A stretch of DNA of 64,000 nt from Candidatus Latescibacterota bacterium (GTDB taxonomy: Bacteria; Latescibacterota; UBA2968; GCA-2709665). Every line of letters begins with the position of its first letter. The first letter of the stretch is position 1. The stretch is from positions 3,776,001 to 3,840,000 of the forward strand of contig OZ242180.1 in assembly GCA_965205485.1 (NCBI GenBank). Reading direction: 5' to 3'. Below, piece after piece: positions 48,175 through 63,357 of this stretch. Below the pieces are notes generated by a model. It was not told the DNA's origin and made no database searches. It saw nothing but the letters and a program-made list of their open reading frames with translations. The position numbers were made by a program, and so were the translations under genes.

Positions 48175-50250
48175 ATGCCCGAAGCGGATCTCAAACAGAT
48201 ACAGAGCCTCTATCCCGCACAGGAGATCTACCGTACGGCGGACGTCGCCGATCTATGGATGGGGAAAGACGATGCCGGTATCCACCTGTTCAGGGGTTCG
48301 GTGGTCGAGAACGACAGCCCCGGCGCCGGAAGGTCGGACGACCTGGACGAGGAACCGTTTATTGAGATATCCGGCAGCCTGGCGTTGAAAAAAGTACTGA
48401 CGCTTCGGCAAAGACCGTCCGGGCCGGCGCAGGTGGCCTTTATCGCACGGGAGCGGAGAGGTCATTCTGCCACGCTTCGAATCAACGTCAACGGGAGGGA
48501 GGTGCTGCGCCCGCCATCACCCGCGGCTACGCCCGACGCGAAACAATATTGGGAGTTGGCGCCAGACCAGGGCGCCTGGAGCTGGAGCCGATGGTATTAC
48601 GTGGGACTGCCCGACGGTTGCCTTCATCATGGCGAAAACCAACTGGTTTTCGATGTCGCCGGCGGAGGGGTGGGGTGGAGTCTGACGGTGGCGGACTACC
48701 GGGATTACGCAAAGGGGATGCCGGATCCGGTCGTGCTGCCGGCTTCGAGCCATTCGCGCCGAAACGGAGAGTGGGCGTCCGAACGCGGCGAATATGTAAT
48801 CCGGCTGGTCCTGGACGGGTACCGTGAAACCGGACTTGCCGTGTCGCCGGTCATCGATGCCGCGGGTGAAGGGGAGGTTAAACGGCGGCACGCCATTCGT
48901 GGATTGCGTCTGGATTGGGACGTCGACCTGCCCGCCGGTACCTGCGTCCAATGTGACGTGAGGACGGGAAGGCATCCGGTGGTGAATGAGGCGGTCTGGA
49001 GCGACTGGCAATCGTGTGAACGCGGGTCGTCGGTAACGTACATCCTGGGACGTTACGTCCAGTGGCGGATGCGGTTACAGACGTCGGACCCGTCGTACAC
49101 GCCCGTTTTGAAGGCGTTGCGGGTCCTTGCCGACGTCCGGCCGGAGGGAGTCGGGCCGCCCCGGGTCGTCAGTTCGGAAAACGCGGCCATCCGGCGGTCT
49201 TCGCACTGGATCGCGGATGAGGACTACCGGCATGACACATTGATACAACTTCGCGAGCGGTTCGAACTGGATGCCGTCGTCGCAGGGGCGCAGACCGAAT
49301 TCGAAGCGATCGAGCGCCTGATGGCGTGGGCGTATGCCGTTCCTCTGGGTGCGTGCCGGCATTTTCCCTGGGACGTCCTTACATGGTTGATGCTCGATCG
49401 GGATCCATGCGGTGCGATTGTAATGAACCGGTACCCGGAACGGCGGCGCGACAAGATGTGTCTCTATCCCAATGTCGCACTCGTAGCCGCCTGCCTGAGT
49501 TTAGGATATCCCGCGCGGCACGTGAACTTCCACAGCGAAGGTATGACCGGACACGAGATCGCGGAAGTCTGGTCGAACGACTATTGCAAGTGGGTCCACC
49601 TGGACGCGACGCGTGATTTCTATTGGTACGATCCCAAAACGCGCGTGCCGCTGGATACGCTCGAGGTGCACGAGGTCCTGGCGGACAGGCTCGAGGACGT
49701 TGAACGCTGGGATCGACCGTACCTGTTCCGGCAGGACCTCGATGCCCTCGTCCGGGACCTGCCGATTGCGGTTCGGGAAGGAAATCACGAGTTCTCTACT
49801 ACTGAGGGGGCGCACTTTCTGTTCAGGTCGTTCTGCCACTTCCGTATGATACCCCGAAGCAATGTCTTCAGCCAGCCGCGTCCGCTACCGGTGAGCCAGG
49901 GCACGGAAGTCTGGGCCTGGGACGGGTATCTCAACTGGGCCGACGACAAGGTGCCGCCGCTGCCTCACTTCACTCGTCACACGAACCGGCGATCGGATTT
50001 TTATCCGTCGATGAACCGGACCCGGTACACCGTGGTGGGGAATGAGGATGGGACCGCGTTGAGGGTCAGCCTGGAAACGCAGACACCGGGTTTCTCGGGT
50101 TTTCTGTCCAGCCTGGACCGAGACGAGTGGAAGTCTTGCCAGGAGAGGTTCGACTGGCAACTGCACGACGGGCTGAACACGATGCGGGTGCGTGCCGTCA
50201 ACAGCGCAGGCGTGAAGGGCCCGGTCAGCAGTCTTGCCGTCGCATTGTAA
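48175..50250 (+). CDS. Multidomain protein with transglutaminase-like Cys-His-Asp core
   Basis: KMCLY, GHEIAEVWSN...KWV.LDAT; N-terminal beta-sandwich region with GRYVQWR. Confidence 0.7.
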   Translation: MPEADLKQIQSLYPAQEIYRTADVADLWMGKDDAGIHLFRGSVVENDSPGAGRSDDLDEEPFIEISGSLALKKVLTLRQRPSGPAQVAFIARERRGHSATLRINVNGREVLRPPSPAATPDAKQYWELAPDQGAWSWSRWYYVGLPDGCLHHGENQLVFDVAGGGVGWSLTVADYRDYAKGMPDPVVLPASSHSRRNGEWASERGEYVIRLVLDGYRETGLAVSPVIDAAGEGEVKRRHAIRGLRLDWDVDLPAGTCVQCDVRTGRHPVVNEAVWSDWQSCERGSSVTYILGRYVQWRMRLQTSDPSYTPVLKALRVLADVRPEGVGPPRVVSSENAAIRRSSHWIADEDYRHDTLIQLRERFELDAVVAGAQTEFEAIERLMAWAYAVPLGACRHFPWDVLTWLMLDRDPCGAIVMNRYPERRRDKMCLYPNVALVAACLSLGYPARHVNFHSEGMTGHEIAEVWSNDYCKWVHLDATRDFYWYDPKTRVPLDTLEVHEVLADRLEDVERWDRPYLFRQDLDALVRDLPIAVREGNHEFSTTEGAHFLFRSFCHFRMIPRSNVFSQPRPLPVSQGTEVWAWDGYLNWADDKVPPLPHFTRHTNRRSDFYPSMNRTRYTVVGNEDGTALRVSLETQTPGFSGFLSSLDRDEWKSCQERFDWQLHDGLNTMRVRAVNSAGVKGPVSSLAVAL

Positions 50251-50287
50251 CGGGTTTCCGTTCGTTTCTCGCGAATACGTCGCCGCG

Positions 50288-50313
50288 AGCCGCCCCTATG
50301 GGGCGGCTTTTTT
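50288..50313 (+). terminator. Rho-independent terminator
   Basis: AGCCGCCCC-TAT-GGGGCGGCT followed by T run. Confidence 0.85.
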
Positions 50314-50440
50314 ATTTATTGCATGCGACCCGGCCCGGCATCGGTTTTTTTCGCATGCGCAGGATACTTTCCGCCGTGATGCGCATCTTTATTCATGTCG
50401 CGCGTGATGTTTCGCCCCTAAAGCAAGGCGAATATTTGGG

Positions 50441-51802
50441 ATGGATGAAGATCGAGACCTTGTAAGGTTTGCGTTAGCCGGCGACACGCAGGCGTTCGGC
50501 CGCCTGGTGGAGCGCTACGCCGAACGGGTTCTCGCGAGGGTCCGACGTGTGGTCAGCCGGCCGGACGATGCCGAAGACCTGGCCCAGGAGGTGTTCCTGC
50601 TGGCGTTTCGTCGCCTGGATCAGCTCCAGGATGCCAACCGTTTTTCCCCTTGGCTTTCGAGGATCGCTGAGAACATGGCCCGAGAGTGGCACCGGCGGCG
50701 GATCGTGCAGATCCGATTCGAGGAGTTGTTGTCGAAGGAGTGGTCCCGGCCCCACGCGGACGAATCGGAGGCGGAGCGGGAGGCCCGCATGATGGTCAGG
50801 GAGGCGATTCGCCGGCTTTCGGGTGCGCATCGGGAGGTGATCGAACTTCATTATTTCAAGGGTCGCTCGTACGGAGAAACCGCGCATCAGTTGGGACTGG
50901 AAGTCAACACCGTTCGCAGCCGCCTGCAGAAGGCGAGGCGGCGGATCAGAAAGGAGATGAGCGAGATGACAACCGCAGGAAACACATACGATCTTACGGC
51001 GCAGGACCTTCGGGCTCTCCATTGGGCAACCCGGTTTGTAAGCACGGACGAATCGCGACCTATACTCCAGGGTGTGTGCCTGGACACCGGCGGTCGGGTT
51101 CTTGGATGCGACGGAGCGCGGTTGCTGCTTCGCACGCTCGAGGGCACGGAGGATCTCGAGAAGCAGGTAATCCTGGGGCCAGGTTTCGATTTGCCGGCGC
51201 CGCATCCCGAGCGGGCTACGCTGTCGATCCGGGAAAACCGGGCTTTTCTGAAGGCCGTTGGAGAAGACGAACTCGTAATACCGATTCTCGACGAACCCTA
51301 TGTAAACTATGTGGCAGTGATACCGGAAAAGGGCGGCAGTTTCGTTCGGATATCCGCGGGTGAACTGCTGCAGGCAGCAAGCCTTATCACGGAGCATCTT
51401 GAGCCCAGGCATCCGGTTGCAGGGGTCTGGACGTATTCGCCACAAGTGGAGGTTCAGATTTCCAGCGAGCATCAGACGCTCTCGCTGGTCACGTCAAGGG
51501 ACCTGGGCTATCGTGCCGCCAAAGAGAATGCCGGTAAACCTGTATCGAATGACGATGCCCCGTGGGCCGGCGTTCCGTACTGGCGGTTCACGACCTCAAT
51601 AAATGGCAAGGTCAACCTGGAAGACAGTCCTGAACCGTTCAGATCCAGTGTAAATCACGCTTACCTGAGCGACGCTGTCTCCGGAATTGAAAGTGGGGGT
51701 ATGCTGGATATTCACTTTACGGATCCCATGAAGGGTTTACTTTTCACTTCATGCGACTATCCTGACCGGAAAGCGCTTGTGATGCCGATGAGAATCGAGT
51801 GA
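50441..51802 (+). CDS. ECF sigma factor fused to a DnaN (beta sliding clamp)-like C-terminal region
   Basis: Sigma2 DAEDLAQEVF...F.PWL..IA.N; sigma4 L....REVI.L.YF.G.SY.E.A..LG....TVRSRL..AR; then STDESRPILQGV, DG.RL, Y..VIP, N..YL.DA, MPMR. Confidence 0.8.
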   Translation: MDEDRDLVRFALAGDTQAFGRLVERYAERVLARVRRVVSRPDDAEDLAQEVFLLAFRRLDQLQDANRFSPWLSRIAENMAREWHRRRIVQIRFEELLSKEWSRPHADESEAEREARMMVREAIRRLSGAHREVIELHYFKGRSYGETAHQLGLEVNTVRSRLQKARRRIRKEMSEMTTAGNTYDLTAQDLRALHWATRFVSTDESRPILQGVCLDTGGRVLGCDGARLLLRTLEGTEDLEKQVILGPGFDLPAPHPERATLSIRENRAFLKAVGEDELVIPILDEPYVNYVAVIPEKGGSFVRISAGELLQAASLITEHLEPRHPVAGVWTYSPQVEVQISSEHQTLSLVTSRDLGYRAAKENAGKPVSNDDAPWAGVPYWRFTTSINGKVNLEDSPEPFRSSVNHAYLSDAVSGIESGGMLDIHFTDPMKGLLFTSCDYPDRKALVMPMRIE

Positions 51803-52115: not shown

Positions 52116-52937
52116 CTATGGTCCAATGTTGCGGGAAGCCGCGCAAATGTCGGCCAAAACGGCAGTTACCGGCTCCAGCGAGGTCTCTGGCGCCAGCACG
52201 ACATCATACGCCGAACGGTATTCCTGGAGGTGGTCGGAGTCGGCGGGGAAGGCGAAGGTGAGCAGTCGTGTGTGGCTGATGTTTTCAGCCATCCTCGTAT
52301 CCTCAAGCGTGTCGCCAAGGAGCAGCAGATTGCTGCGTCCTGCCATCTCCGGTGTGACATCCACGCGCCGAGCGTGTTTATTCAGGCTGTGGATCAGTGG
52401 GGTCCGGTACGCAACCGCAGTACCGTCGGCGTCGAAAGCCAGCGTGTTGGCGACGATGGTGAAATTGTCCGTGGATTGGCCTTCTTCCGCAAGTCGCGCT
52501 TCGATGATTTCCCTGATACCTGCGGACAGGATGATCAGCGGTATCCGGCGTTCGCGCACGGTCTGAAAAAAAAGGCCGGCACCGTCTCGAAGGTGCGGCC
52601 GATTCTCGCGGACAATCCGGCGGATCGTCCGTTTATTGAGTTTGAAATCCAGAAGCAGGTCGAACTGAAGGGACCACCAGCGGCGCAGGTGACGCGACTT
52701 GTCGCCTTCCGATATTTCGGGTGCGCGTTCGATGCTTCGGTATCGGTCAAACAGTTCCTGGTAACGTCGGGTGAACGCCGGCCCGAGAAGCCCGCTGTTC
52801 GCGATGACCGAACAGGAGGACTGATCACTACCGTCTTCAGCCGTGGACCGGGTCAGGGTTCTGTCCCAGTCGCTGACAACCAGGATCCTTTCGGGCCCGT
52901 CTTCCTGAAATTGCTTCAGCTTGTAACGCCATCGCAT
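52116..52937 (-). CDS. HAD-family pyrimidine 5'-nucleotidase (NT5C3/UMPH-1 type)
   Basis: SDWDRTLT, WW, LRDG, SAG, PLIH..NK, NLLLLGD..D..MA, YDVVL; start placed after the MITE. Confidence 0.8.
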   Translation of the reverse strand: MRWRYKLKQFQEDGPERILVVSDWDRTLTRSTAEDGSDQSSCSVIANSGLLGPAFTRRYQELFDRYRSIERAPEISEGDKSRHLRRWWSLQFDLLLDFKLNKRTIRRIVRENRPHLRDGAGLFFQTVRERRIPLIILSAGIREIIEARLAEEGQSTDNFTIVANTLAFDADGTAVAYRTPLIHSLNKHARRVDVTPEMAGRSNLLLLGDTLEDTRMAENISHTRLLTFAFPADSDHLQEYRSAYDVVLAPETSLEPVTAVLADICAASRNIGP

Positions 52938-52970
52938 ACGGTGTTTCGCCGCTCCGGGACGATGGTCTAG

Positions 52971-53130
52971 CAGTCCGTTGATAAAGTCGCTCTGCAGGCG
53001 AGGCCGAGGCATTGTGGTCGAAGACAAGGCGCGCAACCGAGTCCCATCCCTCGATTCGGCGAGGGCGCGCAACGCAGTATTTCGACCGCAAGGGCCGGCC
53101 GTAGCCCGGATGGGCTTTTTCAACGGGCTG
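52971..53130. mobile_element. 160-bp MITE-like element
   Basis: TIR CAGTCCGTTGATAAAG / CTTTTTCAACGGGCTG (2 mismatches in 16), flanked by CTAG and TTAG. Confidence 0.8.
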
Positions 53131-53442
53131 TTAGTCCGACGATTCGGCTTCAAGGGACTGGGACAGCACTCTTTTCAGAATCTTGCCGGGTTTGAACATG
53201 ACTTTGCGGCGGGCGGGCACATAGACCGTTTCGCCGGTGCTGGGGTTGCGCGCCTGGTTCTTTTCCTTCGTCTCCTTGACTTCCCAGGAGCCAAAGCCGC
53301 GTATCTCGATCCGTTTGCCGTTGCAGATCGAAGACGTCATGGCTTCGAACAGCACGTCGACGGCTTCCAAGGCTTTGGTTTTGGGATGACCGATGTTGTC
53401 TGAAAGGTACCGCGCCAGAGAAGCCTTGGTAATCGTTGCCAT
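53131..53442 (-). CDS. HU/IHF-family DNA-binding protein
   Basis: TK..L, IEIRGFGS, ARNP.TGE...VPA....FKPGK.LK. Confidence 0.95.
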   Translation of the reverse strand: MATITKASLARYLSDNIGHPKTKALEAVDVLFEAMTSSICNGKRIEIRGFGSWEVKETKEKNQARNPSTGETVYVPARRKVMFKPGKILKRVLSQSLEAESSD

Positions 53443-53726: not shown

Positions 53727-54152
53727 ATGAAACCCGCTTTGGTGGGTCTGCTGGCAATATGCGTCTGCGTCGCGTGCGGCGGTGAAGACAACGAAAATAA
53801 CCCCGCGAGTTCCGAGTCGCTGGCCGGGTCCTACGATCTGTTGAGGTTGACCCCATCGGGCGGTTCCGCGATATCACCGCCCAACGCTTCCGGGATAATG
53901 ACATTAACGGAAAACCGGTATTCGATTGTGGCCTCCTACGTTACAGCGGGTTCGGAGGACGTAATCCGGGTCGCACAGACCGGAGGGTACGCAAGGTCCG
54001 GCGCCAGTCTGAGTCTCACTCCCGACGGTGGTGGCGGCGCCCAGTCAGGTCAGGTGGCGTCCGGTGGAAGTTCGATCACCGTACTGATTTCGGCGCAGGC
54101 GGGCGGTCAGGCACAGACGTTGACGCTGGTTTTTTCCAGGTCAGGTGAATAG
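53727..54152 (+). CDS. Lipoprotein, possible lipocalin-like beta barrel
   Basis: AAGGAG SD; lipobox CVAC-GG; LAGSY.L motif. Confidence 0.7.
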   Translation: MKPALVGLLAICVCVACGGEDNENNPASSESLAGSYDLLRLTPSGGSAISPPNASGIMTLTENRYSIVASYVTAGSEDVIRVAQTGGYARSGASLSLTPDGGGGAQSGQVASGGSSITVLISAQAGGQAQTLTLVFSRSGE

Positions 54153-54216
54153 GCCGCGGTGCGGTCTTCGCGAAGGGGTTCGGGATCGGGACACGCGTTT
54201 AAGGAATGAAGGTGCG

Positions 54217-54855
54217 ATGAGTCGAATCGGTGTGATAGCGTTACTGCTGGCCATCTTCGCGGCGTGTAAACCTTCGGAGGACACGGATCTCATCGCCATG
54301 GTCAAGAAGGGAGATGAAGAGGGCGTAAAGACGCTGCTGGACGAAGGCGCCGACGCGAACGAAGAAGGCAAGGCAGGTACGACTCCGCTGATCGAAGCCG
54401 CGAAAAAGGGCGTTCCTGAAGTCCTGCGGCATCTGCTCGATGCAGGCGCGGAAGTCAACGATGACCTTTATAGCAGAACCGCGTTGATGGCGGCGGCGAT
54501 CAAGAAGGATTCGACGATCACCGAGATCCTGCTGGAGGCGGGCGCCGACGTGGATGCCAGAGACCTGAACCATCGGACACCCTTAATGTTCGCGTCCGAT
54601 GCCGGGCTGACGGGCGTCGTCCACGTCCTGCTGGCTGCGGGGGCTGATGTCAACGCTGTCGCGCGGTCTGGCTGGACACCTCTGATCTACGCGGCCTACG
54701 GGGGCCACAAGGAGGTTGTGAGCCGGCTGCTCGACGAGGGCGCCGATGTCAACGCGGTCACCAGAAACGGGAAGACCGCCGTCTGGCTGGCGGAGTACCG
54801 CGACAAGCCCGAGGTCGCCGAGGTATTGAGAGAAGCCGGTGCAAAAGACCGTTAA
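54217..54855 (+). CDS. Ankyrin-repeat lipoprotein
   Basis: Lipobox FAAC; repeats G.TPL..AA..G....V..LL..GADVNA. Confidence 0.93.
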   Translation: MSRIGVIALLLAIFAACKPSEDTDLIAMVKKGDEEGVKTLLDEGADANEEGKAGTTPLIEAAKKGVPEVLRHLLDAGAEVNDDLYSRTALMAAAIKKDSTITEILLEAGADVDARDLNHRTPLMFASDAGLTGVVHVLLAAGADVNAVARSGWTPLIYAAYGGHKEVVSRLLDEGADVNAVTRNGKTAVWLAEYRDKPEVAEVLREAGAKDR

Positions 54856-56803: not shown

Positions 56804-58162
56804 TTACCTCGGATCCAGCACGCGTCCGACAAACAGGATGGCATCCGTGGCGTTGTCCCGGATCAGAAAGATGAACGGCCGGTCGGCCGTGAAGGCCGGC
56901 GGCAACGAGGTGACACCGATCGTGCCGCCCGTTGCAGCGCCGGCCTCGGTGCCCCGTTCGTCCACCTTGACAAACGCCTTGTGAACGACCGCCGAGAGGT
57001 AGAGTTCCTTCGTTTCGGCCATTCCTGAAAAGTCGGCCGATTCGGAGTCGAAAGCGTCCGGCATCCCCATTCCAGCCAGCGTGTCGCCCAGCCTGAATTC
57101 GGACTTGATCTCGAAGGACGGAACGGAGAGTCTGAGGCGGATGGGCCTCATTAGCTTCGAAATCTCACTGACGAGGTCCGCGCTCAACGCGTCTTCGAGC
57201 TGACCGAATTCGCCACTGGCAGGAAGAAGGATGATCAGCGACGCCTCCTCTCCCGCATAGAGCATTTCCACTGACTGGACCTGGTGTGTCTCGTGCATCC
57301 CGTAGTTGAAAGCCTCCGTCTGGTGCATCATGGGCACGTTGACGCGATCCCCGCTCAGGAGGTGAAACGAATCACTCGTGGTCCGGTTTTCGTCGAAAGG
57401 GTAGTGCCAGGCGGCGTTGAAATAAATGGCATTTGTCAGTACCAGCCGCGTCAGTTGGTCGATGACGCCCTGGGGAATCAGGTCCTGGATTGTGTCTTCC
57501 GTCCTTTTCGCGACCCAGTCGTTGATGGCCGTCCGCGATGCCTCCGGATTTTCCACGAAGTCAACCGCCCGCATTCCGGCGCCGTAGTTTTCGGCCAGCG
57601 TGTCGAGGAAGCGCGGCAGAAACGCGTACCCCTTCTGACCCCAGATGGCATTGGCGATGTTCAGCCGGAAGTTTTCGGCATCCTGACCGCCGCTGCCTTC
57701 CCCGCGGGATGAGAGCGCGAGGTCGAGGACGTTGAACGCGGGGTGCAGCTGATCCGCGGGAAGTTGAAACCGAAGGACCTCCTCCATCTGTCGCGCCGTC
57801 TCGCCCCTCGCACCGGCGTACATCATAGCCAGCGCCACGGAGATGCTGTGCGGAGAATAGAACAGATTCCCGTCCTGCTCTCTCAACGTTTCGTAGAGGT
57901 CGAACGCGAATGCGCTGTTTCCCCGCACCAGGTCGTCCAGCTTCACATCCGATGCGGACAGAGAGGTCTTTCGCGCCTTTTCGGACCGCAGTACTTCGGT
58001 CGATTGGTCTTCACTTTCGTTCGCCGCCTCGTCAATCGGCGATTCCCCTCCGCATCCGGGGTGCGTAGAGATCAGAATTGCGGCAATAAATGCGGAAAGC
58101 CAACTTCCGAGGGGGGTCCGAATCCTTGTCAGGTTTGATCGTCCTGTTGCAGAGTCCATCAT
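56804..58162 (-). CDS. Serpin (serine protease inhibitor), probable lipoprotein
   Basis: N..FAF.LY, N.FYSP.SI, LVL.NAIYF...W, hinge ERGTEAGAAT, F.ADRPF.F.I; Cys-Gly-Gly after hydrophobic N-terminus. Confidence 0.95.
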   Translation of the reverse strand: MMDSATGRSNLTRIRTPLGSWLSAFIAAILISTHPGCGGESPIDEAANESEDQSTEVLRSEKARKTSLSASDVKLDDLVRGNSAFAFDLYETLREQDGNLFYSPHSISVALAMMYAGARGETARQMEEVLRFQLPADQLHPAFNVLDLALSSRGEGSGGQDAENFRLNIANAIWGQKGYAFLPRFLDTLAENYGAGMRAVDFVENPEASRTAINDWVAKRTEDTIQDLIPQGVIDQLTRLVLTNAIYFNAAWHYPFDENRTTSDSFHLLSGDRVNVPMMHQTEAFNYGMHETHQVQSVEMLYAGEEASLIILLPASGEFGQLEDALSADLVSEISKLMRPIRLRLSVPSFEIKSEFRLGDTLAGMGMPDAFDSESADFSGMAETKELYLSAVVHKAFVKVDERGTEAGAATGGTIGVTSLPPAFTADRPFIFLIRDNATDAILFVGRVLDPR

Positions 58163-59485: not shown

Positions 59486-61300
59486 TCAACGCGGCGCTGT
59501 TTCGGTTTCAGCGCGCCGGCCGGCGAACAGTTCTTTGCGCTGGCGGGTGAGATCTTTGTGTTCGGCCATCAAGGCCATCGGATCTGTCCCTCCTTCCGCC
59601 GCGCGCAACCGCGTCTCAACGGCCGTGATTCGGGCGTCGAGGGCTTTGAGTTGCATTCTGGTAAGATAATCCTGCAGCGGTATCCGCCCTTCCGGGTTGA
59701 GGATGCCGGTTTCCATGGATAGCGCGGATACGATGCCGGCAAGTTCCGCGTCCTCGCAATGATTCAGCAGCGACGCGGCTGACGCCGTCCGACCCTCCTT
59801 TCGCGCCGTCGCGATCATTCCATAGAGACGCCTGTACATGCCGTTGGTAAAGTGACGTGTGTCAATCTGGTCAAGCACCTTGTCTGCCGTCGAATCGTCG
59901 GCCATCATGAGTGTGATGAGCTCCCGTTCCATGCGAGGGCCGGGCTCGAACGACGTCGATCGGGAATCTGCGTCCGTCTCTGCAGGATTGCGCCCGCTTC
60001 GCCGGTAACGCGCGGCGCGCTGCACCGCGTCGATGACAATCGCCTCCTCGATCCCCAGCTTCTGCGCGGCTTCCTGGATCAGAAAGCCCCGCCGGGCGCT
60101 GTCCTTCGCCTGTGCGATGATTTCCGAAACGGTCCTGACGGCGCGTGTCTTGCCGTCCGAAGTGGACAGGTCATCCCGCGACCGGACCCAATCGAAGAGA
60201 AAATCCATCAATGGCGCGGCGGAATCGGTCAGTTCATTAAAGCCGTCGGAACCCCGCTGCCGCACGAAGCTGTCCGGGTCCTCGCCGCCGACCAGCGTGA
60301 CGACTCGAATATCCAGTTCGGACGACATCATCGCCCCGATTCCGCGAACGGCAGCAGCGGTACCTGCCGCATCGCCGTCGAAGACGAGCACGGCCAGGTC
60401 CGCATACCGTTTGAGCAGGCGCGCATGGTCAGTCGTGAGCGCGGTCCCTGAAGACGCGACAACGTTGCGGACGTCGAACTGATCCAGGGCGACCACGTCC
60501 ATATATCCCTCCACCACAACCGCCGACCGGGTTGAACGGATCGGTTCCCGGTTTTTCCAGAGGCCGTAGAGCGTGGCGCTCTTGTTGTAGATGGGGGTCT
60601 CGGGCGAGTTCAGGTATTTGGGCTGCTGCTCAGGATCGAGGGCGCGGGCGCCGAAAGCCACCGTCCTTCCCGTGTGCGATTCGATGGGGAAGATCACACG
60701 GTCGCGAAAGCGGTCGTAGTATCCGCCGTTCTCACGGGCCACAGCCAGCCCCGCCCGTTCGAGCATCTGCGCGCTGTAGCCGCGTCGGCCCGCCACGCTC
60801 AGCAGTCCGTCCCACGCCTTTGTGGCGTAACCCAGCGAAAAGGCTTCCATCACGGACTCGGACACGCCGCGGCCCAAAAGGTATTCGCGGGCGCTCTCGC
60901 CGGACGGGTGGCGCATCAGCATGTGGCGAAAGTATTTCTTGGCGAATTCGACCGTTCTGTAAAGCTCGTCATTCGTGTCCTTTTCCGCGGGACTTCCGGA
61001 TTCGGACTCGGGCAGGACGATTCCGACCTGATTCGCGAGCTTGCGCACGGATTCAACGAAACTGATGCGTTCGAGATCCATCAGGAATCTGAAGGCATTG
61101 CCGCCTGCGCCGCAGGAGAAACACTTGTAGATCTGTTTCTCCTGTGAGACATTCAGGGAGGGCGTCCGGTCGTCGTGAAACGGGCAGAGGCCCAAAAAGC
61201 TTTTGCCGCGCTTGCTGAGCGCGACAAATTCCGATATGACGTCGACGATGTCCACCGAGTCGCGGACCTGTTCGACGGTATCTTCAGGAATGCGGGCCAT
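59486..61300 (-). CDS. dnaG: DNA primase
   Basis: CPFH.D.TPS..CF.CG zinc finger, DRFR.R..FPI, KYLNSPET, VVEGYMDV, FDGD.AG, DPD. Confidence 0.97.
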   Translation of the reverse strand: MARIPEDTVEQVRDSVDIVDVISEFVALSKRGKSFLGLCPFHDDRTPSLNVSQEKQIYKCFSCGAGGNAFRFLMDLERISFVESVRKLANQVGIVLPESESGSPAEKDTNDELYRTVEFAKKYFRHMLMRHPSGESAREYLLGRGVSESVMEAFSLGYATKAWDGLLSVAGRRGYSAQMLERAGLAVARENGGYYDRFRDRVIFPIESHTGRTVAFGARALDPEQQPKYLNSPETPIYNKSATLYGLWKNREPIRSTRSAVVVEGYMDVVALDQFDVRNVVASSGTALTTDHARLLKRYADLAVLVFDGDAAGTAAAVRGIGAMMSSELDIRVVTLVGGEDPDSFVRQRGSDGFNELTDSAAPLMDFLFDWVRSRDDLSTSDGKTRAVRTVSEIIAQAKDSARRGFLIQEAAQKLGIEEAIVIDAVQRAARYRRSGRNPAETDADSRSTSFEPGPRMERELITLMMADDSTADKVLDQIDTRHFTNGMYRRLYGMIATARKEGRTASAASLLNHCEDAELAGIVSALSMETGILNPEGRIPLQDYLTRMQLKALDARITAVETRLRAAEGGTDPMALMAEHKDLTRQRKELFAGRRAETETAPR

Positions 61301-61416
61301 AGCGGATTCCCGATCGGGTTGGAACGAAGACAGCGTTGCGGAAGGTAAGCGTGTTGTAGACTTCGCGAACCTGGTGTGGGGGAAGTGCGGATCTTCAGCG
61401 CGGGCGCATCCGGCGT

Positions 61417-63357
61417 TCAGGCATCCACCCACCGGTTGTCTTCCCTGATCAGCTCGACCAGTTCGTCCACGGCGACGGAGGTGGGGATGTTTCGCTTGAC
61501 GATGTCCTTGCCGCGGTATAGCGTGATCCGGCCGGGGCCGCTGCCGACGTACCCGTAGTCCGCGTCGGCCATTTCGCCCGGACCGTTCACGATGCATCCC
61601 ATAATGCCGATCTTGACGCCTTTCAGGTGGTCGGTGCGTCCGCGGATCAGGGCGGTGGTCTCCTGAAGGTCGAACAGGGTGCGGCCGCAGGAGGGGCAGG
61701 AGATATACTCGGTTTTCGAGATGCGGGTGCGGGTCGCCTGCAGGATACCGAATCCGAGGCGGTTAAGATCCCCGGGTCCGACGTCCGGCGATTCCAGCCA
61801 TATGCCGTCGCCGAGGCCGTCTGTCAGCAACCCGCCGGTGTCAATCGCGGCGTGAAGGATGAGCGCGTCGTCGTCGATGCCGCCGTATTCGCGTTTGAGC
61901 ACGACGGGAATACGGATGTCGCGCTCGACGAACTCAGCCAGAACGCGGCGCAGATCCGGCATCGCGTGGATATTGTCCGTACGCAGGACAAGCACGCAGT
62001 TGGCCGCCGCCCGCAGCATATCCAGGGCGTCCGTGTCGACGTCATCGGGTTCGGCGAGCACGAAATTCAGGCGTTCTGACCGATATGGAACCTCCCGAAA
62101 GGTGGCCAGATCGAACAGGGGATAGGCGTTCGGCGCCCCGCGCCGGTCATGCCATGCATCGTGGTCCAGGATCTTGCCGAGTGTGCCCGGGAGGCCGAAG
62201 TCGATATCCCGGTTGCCCAGATAGATGAAGTCGGGCGCCATGTCCGCGATATTCCATTTGTCCAGCGTCGCGTCATATTGATAGCCGATGGAGGACAGGC
62301 AGGCCGGTGATTGCAATTCGTCAGGGGAAAGGATTACAACCGGCACACTGTCGCCGCCCACCCGGTCCACGGGTTGGGTTTGACGCCGGGTATAGGCGTA
62401 TGGGTCGATCGGATTTCTGACGATGGCGGGAATCGGTGGATGCCCCGGTCTGGCCTCGTACCGTTCGACGAGACGGATACACACGGGAATCTCGGCTTCG
62501 GGCTCCTCCGTCAGGGAGACGCGAATGGTGTCGCCCAGACCGTCTTCCAGGAGCGCTCCAATGCCCACGGCGGACTTGACGCGGCCGTCTTCGCCGTCGC
62601 CGGCCTCGGTAACGCCCAGGTGAAGGGGATAGTTGAAACCCTCGGCTTCCATGCGATTGACCAGCAGCCGGTAGGCCTGTATCATCACCTGGGGATTGCT
62701 GGCTTTCATGGACAGGACGATGTCGTGGTAGTCCAGGTCGGCGCAGATTCGCGTGAATTCAAGTGCCGATTCGACCATACCCAACGGCGTGTCGCCGAAC
62801 CGGCTCATGATGCGGTCCGAGAGGGAGCCGTGGTTGGCGCCGATACGCATCGCGGTGCCGTATGTTTTACAGATGTTGACCAGCGGCGTGAATTTTTCCC
62901 GGATGCGTTCGATCTCTGCGGCGTATTGCGCGTCCGTATACTCGACGATCTGGAATTTCTTTTTGTCCGCGTAGTTGCCGGGGTTGACCCTCACCTTTTC
63001 CACGATCCGCGCGGCGATTTCCGCCGCATTGGGCGTGAAGTGAATGTCGGCGATCAACGGGGCGATGTACCCCCTGGCCCGGAGTTCGTTCCGTATGGCC
63101 TCGAGGTTGCGCGCCTCGTTCTGGCTGGGCGCGGTGATGCGTACGTAGTCCGCCCCTGCCTCGATGATCCTGATGGACTGTTCAACCGTGGCGAGCGTGT
63201 CCATGGTGTCCGTCGTCGTCATGGACTGAACCCGTATGGGATTGTCCCCGCCAAGCGGAATATGGCCTATGGACACTTCCCTCGTCCGGTACCGGCTGTA
63301 TTCGATGAGACTGTTGCAGTACTTCCCGGGGTCGGTCTGCAGGTTGGTAATCAGCAT
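61417..63357 (-). CDS. ispG: HMBPP synthase IspG, long three-domain form
   Basis: VQSMT, ADIHF, R.NPGN, RIG.NHGSL, LHLGVTEAG, CPSCGRT, MGCIVNGPGE; large central insert. Confidence 0.96.
   Translation of the reverse strand: MLITNLQTDPGKYCNSLIEYSRYRTREVSIGHIPLGGDNPIRVQSMTTTDTMDTLATVEQSIRIIEAGADYVRITAPSQNEARNLEAIRNELRARGYIAPLIADIHFTPNAAEIAARIVEKVRVNPGNYADKKKFQIVEYTDAQYAAEIERIREKFTPLVNICKTYGTAMRIGANHGSLSDRIMSRFGDTPLGMVESALEFTRICADLDYHDIVLSMKASNPQVMIQAYRLLVNRMEAEGFNYPLHLGVTEAGDGEDGRVKSAVGIGALLEDGLGDTIRVSLTEEPEAEIPVCIRLVERYEARPGHPPIPAIVRNPIDPYAYTRRQTQPVDRVGGDSVPVVILSPDELQSPACLSSIGYQYDATLDKWNIADMAPDFIYLGNRDIDFGLPGTLGKILDHDAWHDRRGAPNAYPLFDLATFREVPYRSERLNFVLAEPDDVDTDALDMLRAAANCVLVLRTDNIHAMPDLRRVLAEFVERDIRIPVVLKREYGGIDDDALILHAAIDTGGLLTDGLGDGIWLESPDVGPGDLNRLGFGILQATRTRISKTEYISCPSCGRTLFDLQETTALIRGRTDHLKGVKIGIMGCIVNGPGEMADADYGYVGSGPGRITLYRGKDIVKRNIPTSVAVDELVELIREDNRWVDA

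Follow-up and report, generated by a model that had tools for sequence, protein, structure and literature searches.

An extracytoplasmic function sigma factor with a C-terminal extension derived from domains II and III of the beta sliding clamp in Latescibacterota

Sigma factors of the extracytoplasmic function (ECF) type are a main signalling device of bacteria, and the control of those without an anti-sigma factor is largely open. In T4 late transcription, the clamp gp45, a trimeric ring on DNA, activates the sigma-like protein gp55 (with gp33), and this link is non-covalent and made via clamp-binding tails. In the parts of PMC7826278 that were consulted, 19 ECF groups with C-terminal extensions are described, including SnoaL-like, tetratricopeptide repeat (TPR), Cys-rich, DUF1835 and transmembrane types, and the consulted part of PMC8999054 states that the extension of ECF41 acts through contact with a linker motif. 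Here, we describe a gene of a Candidatus Latescibacterota bacterium (assembly GCA_965205485.1, contig OZ242180.1) in which an ECF sigma factor is followed by two diverged domains of the beta sliding clamp (DnaN), a ‘half-clamp’. The window, i.e. the whole stretch of DNA that was analysed, has 64,000 nt and covers positions 3,776,001 to 3,840,000 of this contig; coordinates of the gene and its surroundings are given as positions of the window.

The coding sequence occupies positions 50441-51802 (+) and runs from an ATG start without interruption through 453 codons to the stop codon. That its product is an ECF sigma factor whose C-terminal extension consists of diverged clamp domains II and III is, in our judgement, as good as certain. 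Sigma-70 region 2 (50504-50701, +; residues 22-87) matched PF04542 with an E-value of 1.8e-13 and 50.5 bits (cut-off 24), and Sigma-70 region 4 (50789-50953, +; residues 117-171) matched PF08281 over residues 117-169 with an E-value of 1.8e-13 and 50.3 bits (cut-off 25.7), as well as PF04545 (E 8.8e-10). Hence, the single open reading frame (ORF) with complete sigma2 and sigma4 that the original prediction had described is borne out by Pfam scores above the cut-offs for both regions. The linker between the two regions is short (∼30 aa), and the sigma part scored 95.8 bits with the ECF model TIGR02937, for which the cut-off is 42.9. Among the eight Pfam families listed for the protein at E up to 10, none represents sigma region 1.1 or region 3, and the 25 more specific NCBIfam models shown (equivalog or subfamily) all stayed below their own cut-offs. 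Judged from these domain matches, residues 1-175 are a complete ECF sigma factor.

Two observations concern the start codon and the other ECF-like genes of this genome. In 11 of the 14 same-genus orthologues the start codon is apparently a TTG that lies two codons upstream and is preceded by a GGAGG box; the ATG start is assigned in the window and in two further loci (L016 and L010), and the window and L016 are without the two extra codons. Moreover, the genome holds 13 ECF-like open frames, five of which measure 411-625 aa from stop to stop, and thus several of its ECF sigma factors carry long extensions.

Residues 180-453 (274 aa) are homologous to domains II and III of the beta sliding clamp, and domain I is absent. 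With Pfam, the module gave a match to DNA_pol3_beta_3 (PF02768) of 18.5 bits, below the cut-off of 27, in which residues 397-451 correspond to profile positions 68-121, and PF02767 was not among the families listed for the protein. A search of the Protein Data Bank with the single sequence was marginal, with beta clamps making up five of the six matches and the best of them at E 0.0093. A profile built from 36 family members reached beta clamps at E 1.5e-9. For a module-only profile of 16 sequences the E-value against beta clamps was 6.9e-19, and E. coli beta gave values of 3.1e-16 to 8e-16. Of the 60 rows listed for this module profile, bacterial beta clamps fill the first 54, and PCNA-type clamps follow in the remaining six at E 0.024-0.061. 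The match is composed of two collinear stretches, which pair profile positions 5-139 with E. coli 125-268 (domain II) and profile positions 219-273 with E. coli 312-365 (end of domain III). The likeness to clamps far exceeds what chance would give, but profile or structure methods are required to see it.

Structure prediction led to the same assignment. The whole protein was modelled with AlphaFold2 on the basis of an alignment of 43 sequences, and the model has a mean predicted local distance difference test score of 87.7 and a predicted template modelling score (pTM) of 0.60. All 33 matches listed by Foldseek for this model are beta clamps, with E-values down to 7.7e-14 and a probability of 1.00, and VIA-align placed model residues 179-452 on E. 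coli beta 123-366 with a Z-score of 24.6 and a root-mean-square deviation of 2.3 A over 233 residues, although the identity to beta clamps in the structural alignment is just 15-21%. Because the aligned part of the model extends from 179 to 452, the module spans the start of domain II through the C-terminus of beta. By the profile alignments and the model-to-beta alignment, the domain II-like part covers residues 180-299 (50978-51337, +) and the domain III-like part covers residues 300-453 (51338-51799, +).

The claim that this C-terminal region corresponds to clamp domains II and III had been made from five motifs, and these were found in the order claimed: FVSTDESRPILQGV (199-212), GCDGARL (222-228), YVNYVAVIP (287-295), VNHAYLSDAV (404-413) and LVMPMRI (446-452). 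A separate canonical dnaN, which had also been expected, is present at genome positions 1,665,025-1,666,176, 2.2 Mb from the fusion gene, and it is the only match of PF00712 (domain I) in the 5.13 Mb genome, which consists of a single contig. In a protein atlas, only clusters named ‘putative DNA polymerase III subunit beta’ were returned (score 0.90), which we treat as a lead and do not count as evidence.

The consulted part of PMC11139829 states that the clamp-binding motifs of all known partners, the loader delta subunit included, bind the same pocket, and that its subsite I is formed by R152, L155, T172, G174, H175, R176, L177, P242, R246, V247, V360 and M362, and its subsite II by H175, N320, Y323, V344, M362, P363, M364 and R365. 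These residues were mapped by hand onto the module from the E. coli-numbered profile alignment. Twelve of the 18 are identical (R206, L209, G225, R227, L228, V293, M448, N405, Y408, P449, M450 and R451), and three are conservative changes (T172 to C223, V360 to L446 and V344 to M430); they fall into the motifs RPIL (206-209), CDGARL (223-228) and YVNYVAVIP (287-295) in the domain II-like part, and N405/Y408 and L446-R451 in the domain III-like part. In the 43-sequence alignment the 18 pocket columns have a mean entropy of 1.40, compared with 2.29 for the whole module, and none of 20,000 random sets of 18 positions was as low. Most residues of the clamp pocket are thus kept in the module, and peptide binding by it is a prediction from these residues.

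The domain III-like part also holds a family-specific cluster (51398-51583, +) consisting of L320, H324, P325, Y332, P334, G356, Y357 and W381. Entropy in the 43-sequence alignment is lowest at these columns, two of which (G356 and W381) are invariant, and canonical clamps lack a counterpart. The cluster surrounds an inserted loop (∼360-381), modelled with lower confidence, in the first half of domain III. Its beginning roughly coincides with the expected place of I272/L273, dimer-interface residues in E. coli beta, a position that is extrapolated from the end of the hidden Markov model alignment and therefore approximate.

The same fusion was found in many genomes. A word-indexed search returned 45 proteins, of which 41 have sigma domains and 36 are 453-455 aa long; the module identity of these relatives is 62-92% in the main group, and two sources name Gemmatimonadota. 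The alignment of 36 sequences is conserved throughout its length, with no break at the junction of sigma and module. In an exhaustive module-only search of 1.84 billion representatives, 121 proteins were found at E up to 1e-3 and 47 at 1e-10 or better, and Pfam searches with 60 representatives showed sigma regions in 35, the module only in 14, canonical three-domain clamps in nine (a weak tail) and unrelated repeat proteins in two. The module-only entries are mostly gene calls cut short on contigs of ∼1-3 kb, and members of 433-466 aa are present as well in four of the ten clusters checked; the only module-alone protein that may be genuinely free-standing is P0065, which has 284 aa and lies on a contig of 46.5 kb. 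Two other architectures were seen, P0069 with a Cys-x2-Cys zinc-ribbon-like N-terminus before the module (a weak Pfam hit), and P0085 with a SEC-C motif C-terminal to the module.

Within the phylum, 67 of 168 genomes carry the fusion, with exactly one match each (E 1e-8 or better). Carriers comprise all 14 genomes of the own genus, and by family 17 of 21, 15 of 31, 2 of 3 and 32 of 76 genomes, whereas ten further families gave 0 of 36. The matches lie in open frames of 447-510 aa in 62 of the 67 cases, and the other five (268-426 aa) are partial or at contig ends; one of the 67 contains an internal TAG. Members outside the phylum occur in Candidatus Handelsmanbacteria (OGG47072.1) and Lentisphaerota (MCP3964824.1), where they are annotated only as sigma factor or hypothetical protein, and the pocket positions and the domain III cluster are conserved down to ∼25-30% identity in at least three phyla. 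Furthermore, contigs of three sequencing runs from two studies bridge the junction between sigma4 and the module without reported indels: X1 and X4 have 0 differences and possibly stem from the source sample, and X5 (291 nt) comes from a different study and has 11 differences. It is next to impossible that the gene is a pseudogene, or that an assembly or sequencing error fused two genes, the outcome that would have undone the original prediction; the 62 intact frames, the alignment conserved from end to end and the indel-free junction contigs led us to reject it.

Two side observations were made on these sequence runs. In the X5 contig, which represents a related strain, window positions 50399-50491, covering the leader and the gene's 5′-end, are exchanged for 93 different letters, and near-identical pieces of the gene are present in runs with the labels marine and sponge metagenome (e.g. 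X6, 222 nt with 1 difference).

At the start of the linker between sigma2 and sigma4 lies a family-specific motif (50687-50731, +; residues 83-97), W-x-RRR-x-VQ-I-R-F-EE-x-L, which may be where the module makes contact. Across the fused members it reads W-x-R-R-R-x-V-Q-phi-R-[F/L/W]-E-E-x-L, with Q90 in 29 of 31 sequences, F, L or W at position 93 in 28 and L97 in 21, and among the 13 ECF-like ORFs of the genome just one has this motif. For comparison, the clamp-binding motifs given in the consulted part of PMC11139829 are QLxLF and Q-phi-x-[L/M]-x-[F/L]. Because the Q-phi-x-[F/L/W] core resembles these motifs, and because ECF41 provides a precedent for contact between extension and linker, the linker motif is a candidate cis-ligand of the pocket. 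Another look-alike of the clamp-binding motif, QLGL in sigma4 (residues 150-153), was rejected, as it is not conserved outside the close clade.

In our model, the half-clamp would act not as a ring on DNA, but as a peptide-docking domain in place of an anti-sigma factor, with the SnoaL-like extension of ECF41 and the TPR extension of ECF42 as models for its role. Occupancy of the cleft between domains II and III would switch the sigma factor between an inactive state and a state competent for RNA polymerase. The ligand would be a short linear motif, for which the candidate in cis is the sigma factor's own linker motif VQ-phi-R-[F/L/W] and the candidate in trans is a clamp-binding-motif protein, and the gene would probably activate its own promoter (GGATAC-N17-ATCT). 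Taken as a whole, a real ECF sigma factor with a half-clamp acting as built-in peptide-docking regulator is the best explanation, to which we assign a probability of about 0.55; for the regulatory role by itself, through docking in cis or in trans, we consider the odds evenly balanced. That the module serves as the sigma factor's regulator had been put forward in the original prediction and is plausible. Such a regulator would be borrowed from the replication machinery and would keep the surface used by every known clamp partner. If the pocket is functional, the consequence would be either a new autoinhibition, in which the sigma linker mimics a clamp-binding motif, or a direct protein link from replication or repair to promoter selection.

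Several points weigh against this model. Three of the 18 pocket residues are changed (H175 to A226, P242 to V288 and R246 to A292), and retention of the others may partly reflect inheritance and fold constraints, since the pocket is the most conserved part of all beta clamps. The linker agrees with the clamp-binding motif only in its first four positions, and positions 5 and 6 do not match; moreover, this segment is predicted to be helical, and we take the pTM of 0.60 to mean that the predicted structure does not dock the sigma domains confidently onto the module. Promoter-pattern searches of the genome did not find a second target promoter or a regulon. Finally, the comparison of inner-helix charges, in which canonical clamps have 2-4 Lys and Arg residues in the second-helix segment alone, is weak, as it is based on partial alignments of eight canonical clamps.

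The conserved pocket residues would be expected as well if the half-clamp served to dock sigma and RNA polymerase on clamp-motif proteins (Pol III alpha, Pol IV, MutL, Hda and clamp-loader delta), given the single pocket shared by all known clamp partners in the consulted part of PMC11139829. Transcription initiation would then be placed at replication forks or repair sites, or the availability of the sigma factor would follow the pool of free clamp partners. However, the promoter-pattern searches brought up no target genes, and a replication or repair gene was never a conserved neighbour in the 15 loci compared (14 from distant carrier genomes and the window). The three changed pocket residues depart from the canonical set, hence the cell's own clamp partners would not necessarily cross-bind, and we consider this docking unlikely. 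An explanation without any ligand is that the clamp fold, a robust scaffold for which no ligand has been identified here, is only a dimerisation or bulk domain or an evolutionary relic; conservation of the pocket and of the domain III cluster to ∼25-30% identity over at least three phyla, and maintenance of the fusion as a single copy in 67 genomes, make this quite improbable.

A ring on DNA has to be weighed with more structural detail. In a canonical clamp each domain has two helices that face the channel, and domain I supplies half of the dimer interface. Since domain I is missing here, the canonical head-to-tail dimer ring cannot form, but a PCNA-like ring might be closed by three half-clamps (six domains), and the sigma factor would then move along DNA; the two-domain protomers of PCNA and gp45 do form trimers, both domain folds of the module are intact and the clamp-loader pocket is kept. 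On the other hand, only three of the four inner helices are predicted in the module (187-198, 306-317 and 406-416), a shorter Pro/Gly-rich loop (246-258) taking the place of the second inner helix of domain II, and the sum over the four inner-helix segments is net acidic, with family means of ∼4.1 for K+R and ∼7.2 for D+E, whereas the positive charges lining the channel of canonical clamps are conserved according to the consulted part of PMC11139829. Moreover, the position of canonical I272/L273 is taken by a different conserved motif, LEPRHP (approximate mapping), the sequence affinity is to beta and not to PCNA, and no phage relatives were found among 50,697 phage records in a protein search at E 1e-3. 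A complex prediction with three copies of the module scored 0.22 (mark 0.42), which says nothing for or against a trimer. The lost inner helix, the acidic inner helices and the missing domain I together argue, weakly, against a function in encircling DNA.

Thus, a sigma factor sliding on such a trimeric ring appears improbable to us, and the chances are slim that the half-clamps either form a PCNA-like ring or are handled by the clamp loader via the pocket while the ECF sigma factor rides DNA. If true, a DNA-riding sigma factor would be a cellular, covalent counterpart of T4 late transcription, with promoter choice coupled to replication or to DNA nicks. The original prediction had offered a PCNA-like ring, sensing of antibiotics and coupling of the T4 kind as possible functions; the ring gained no support, with the lost domain II helix and the acidic helices weighing weakly against it, and nothing that we obtained speaks for the other two.

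Positive autoregulation is usual for ECF sigma factors, and the sigma-E-type ECF promoter reads GGAACTT-N16-TCTGA. Upstream of the fusion gene, a promoter-like two-box element is located at 50362-50392 (+), which is composed of GGATACTTT (50362-50370), a fixed spacer and CATCTTTAT (50384-50392). The arrangement of GGATACTTT, 15 nt and ATCT[G/T]TAT is common to 13 of 14 same-genus loci, including two with a different upstream gene, and the exact two-box pattern stands beside the gene in 14 of the 15 genomes of the genus. A relaxed pattern, GA[TC]AC[TC]T followed after 15 nt by ATCT, AACT, GTCT, ATCG or GTCA, was derived post hoc from the same loci; in 25 of 28 loci it occurs at a distance of 37-150 nt upstream of the start, the rest of the 464,582 nt scanned is free of matches, and in two of the three loci where it is missing the spacer is 1 nt longer (judged by eye). 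The −10-like box is lineage-dependent and reads ATCT, GTCT or AACT. The two-box element (GGATAC-N17-ATCT), with its sigma-E-like layout, would probably serve the gene as an autoregulated promoter. In the most distant family of the phylum (loci L027-L031 and L033) the −10-like box ends ∼10-15 nt before the start codon, which suggests a leaderless or very short-leader mRNA in that family.

At the level of the genome, GGATACTT-N14-16-ATCT has three exact matches in 5.1 Mb, and the promoter of the fusion gene is the only one outside a long open frame; long frames of 712 and 385 aa enclose the other two (at 2344354 and 3425082, respectively). The loose pattern GGATAC-N15-17-NATCT has 36 genome matches compared with ∼29 expected, and is therefore uninformative. 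The 28-nt match at G000:C1:2344354-2344381 recurs almost unchanged in 9 of the 15 genomes of the genus, and because it is located inside the 712-aa frame it is probably conserved coding sequence.

Further upstream, at 50287-50309 (+), lies an intrinsic-terminator-like hairpin of 10 pairs (8 G-C) followed by a T run, which is conserved in the same-genus upstream alignment. Since this hairpin ends the upstream gene (48175-50250, with a weak transglutaminase-core match), the sigma gene has its own transcription unit. Downstream, a convergent gene (52116-53153, −) encodes a UMPH-1-type nucleotidase, and thus the absence of an adjacent anti-sigma gene, as noted in the original prediction, holds on both sides. 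The fusion gene is the one gene common to all 15 loci, and synteny does not extend beyond genera: among the neighbours annotated across the loci are sulfatases, PhyH dioxygenases, a DHDPS-family enzyme, aminotransferases, ClpP and other ECF sigma genes, and neither an anti-sigma nor a replication gene is a conserved neighbour among those annotated. The fusion gene, which is old and conserved and occurs as a single copy, is monocistronic and without a conserved neighbour.

Some other features of the surroundings were recorded. In one locus (L026:3682-9218, genome G105) a fusion gene of 471 aa stands between two ECF sigma genes with long TPR extensions (634 and 567 aa), so that three extended ECF sigma factors lie side by side. 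In the window, genes of two eukaryote-like types follow within a few kb downstream, an ankyrin-repeat protein (54145-54855, +) and a serpin (56804-58162, −). The DnaG primase gene (59486-61597, −) is 8 kb downstream; no link to the fusion gene was seen, and it is not conserved beside the fusion in other lineages.

Compared with DnaN, the module is homologous in domains II and III by sequence and by fold, and it retains the C-terminal MPMR strand. It differs in that domain I is missing, in its scores below Pfam cut-offs, in its own PRHP/MGY/Trp cluster and in being joined to a sigma factor, whereas a normal dnaN is kept separately in the same genome. The family is evidence that one half of a beta clamp can be maintained as a stable domain in its own right. 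The module has two clamp domains per polypeptide, like PCNA-type clamps, but its sequence tie to them (E 0.024 or worse) is far weaker than that to beta clamps. As in T4 late transcription, a sigma-family protein is joined functionally to a protein of the sliding-clamp fold; in the fusion protein, however, the link is covalent, the module is beta-type, and a ring is hypothetical.

Among ECF sigma factors, the closest described systems are those with C-terminal extensions. A clamp-derived extension was not found in the literature searched, including the consulted parts of PMC7826278, PMC7671368 and PMC8999054, a scope that ends before the later ECF groups in the supplement of PMC7826278. Like ECF41, ECF56, ECF294 and ECF295 (SnoaL-like), ECF42 (TPR) and ECF238 (Cys-rich), as far as these are described in the consulted parts of PMC8999054 and PMC7826278, the fusion protein has a sigma2-sigma4 core with an extension of >50 aa, no anti-sigma gene nearby and a group-specific linker motif, and it is set apart from them by an extension of 274 aa that is derived from the beta clamp. 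Hence, an ECF sigma factor with a C-terminal extension is a known kind of regulator, and in our reading the half-clamp is a new type of such an extension.

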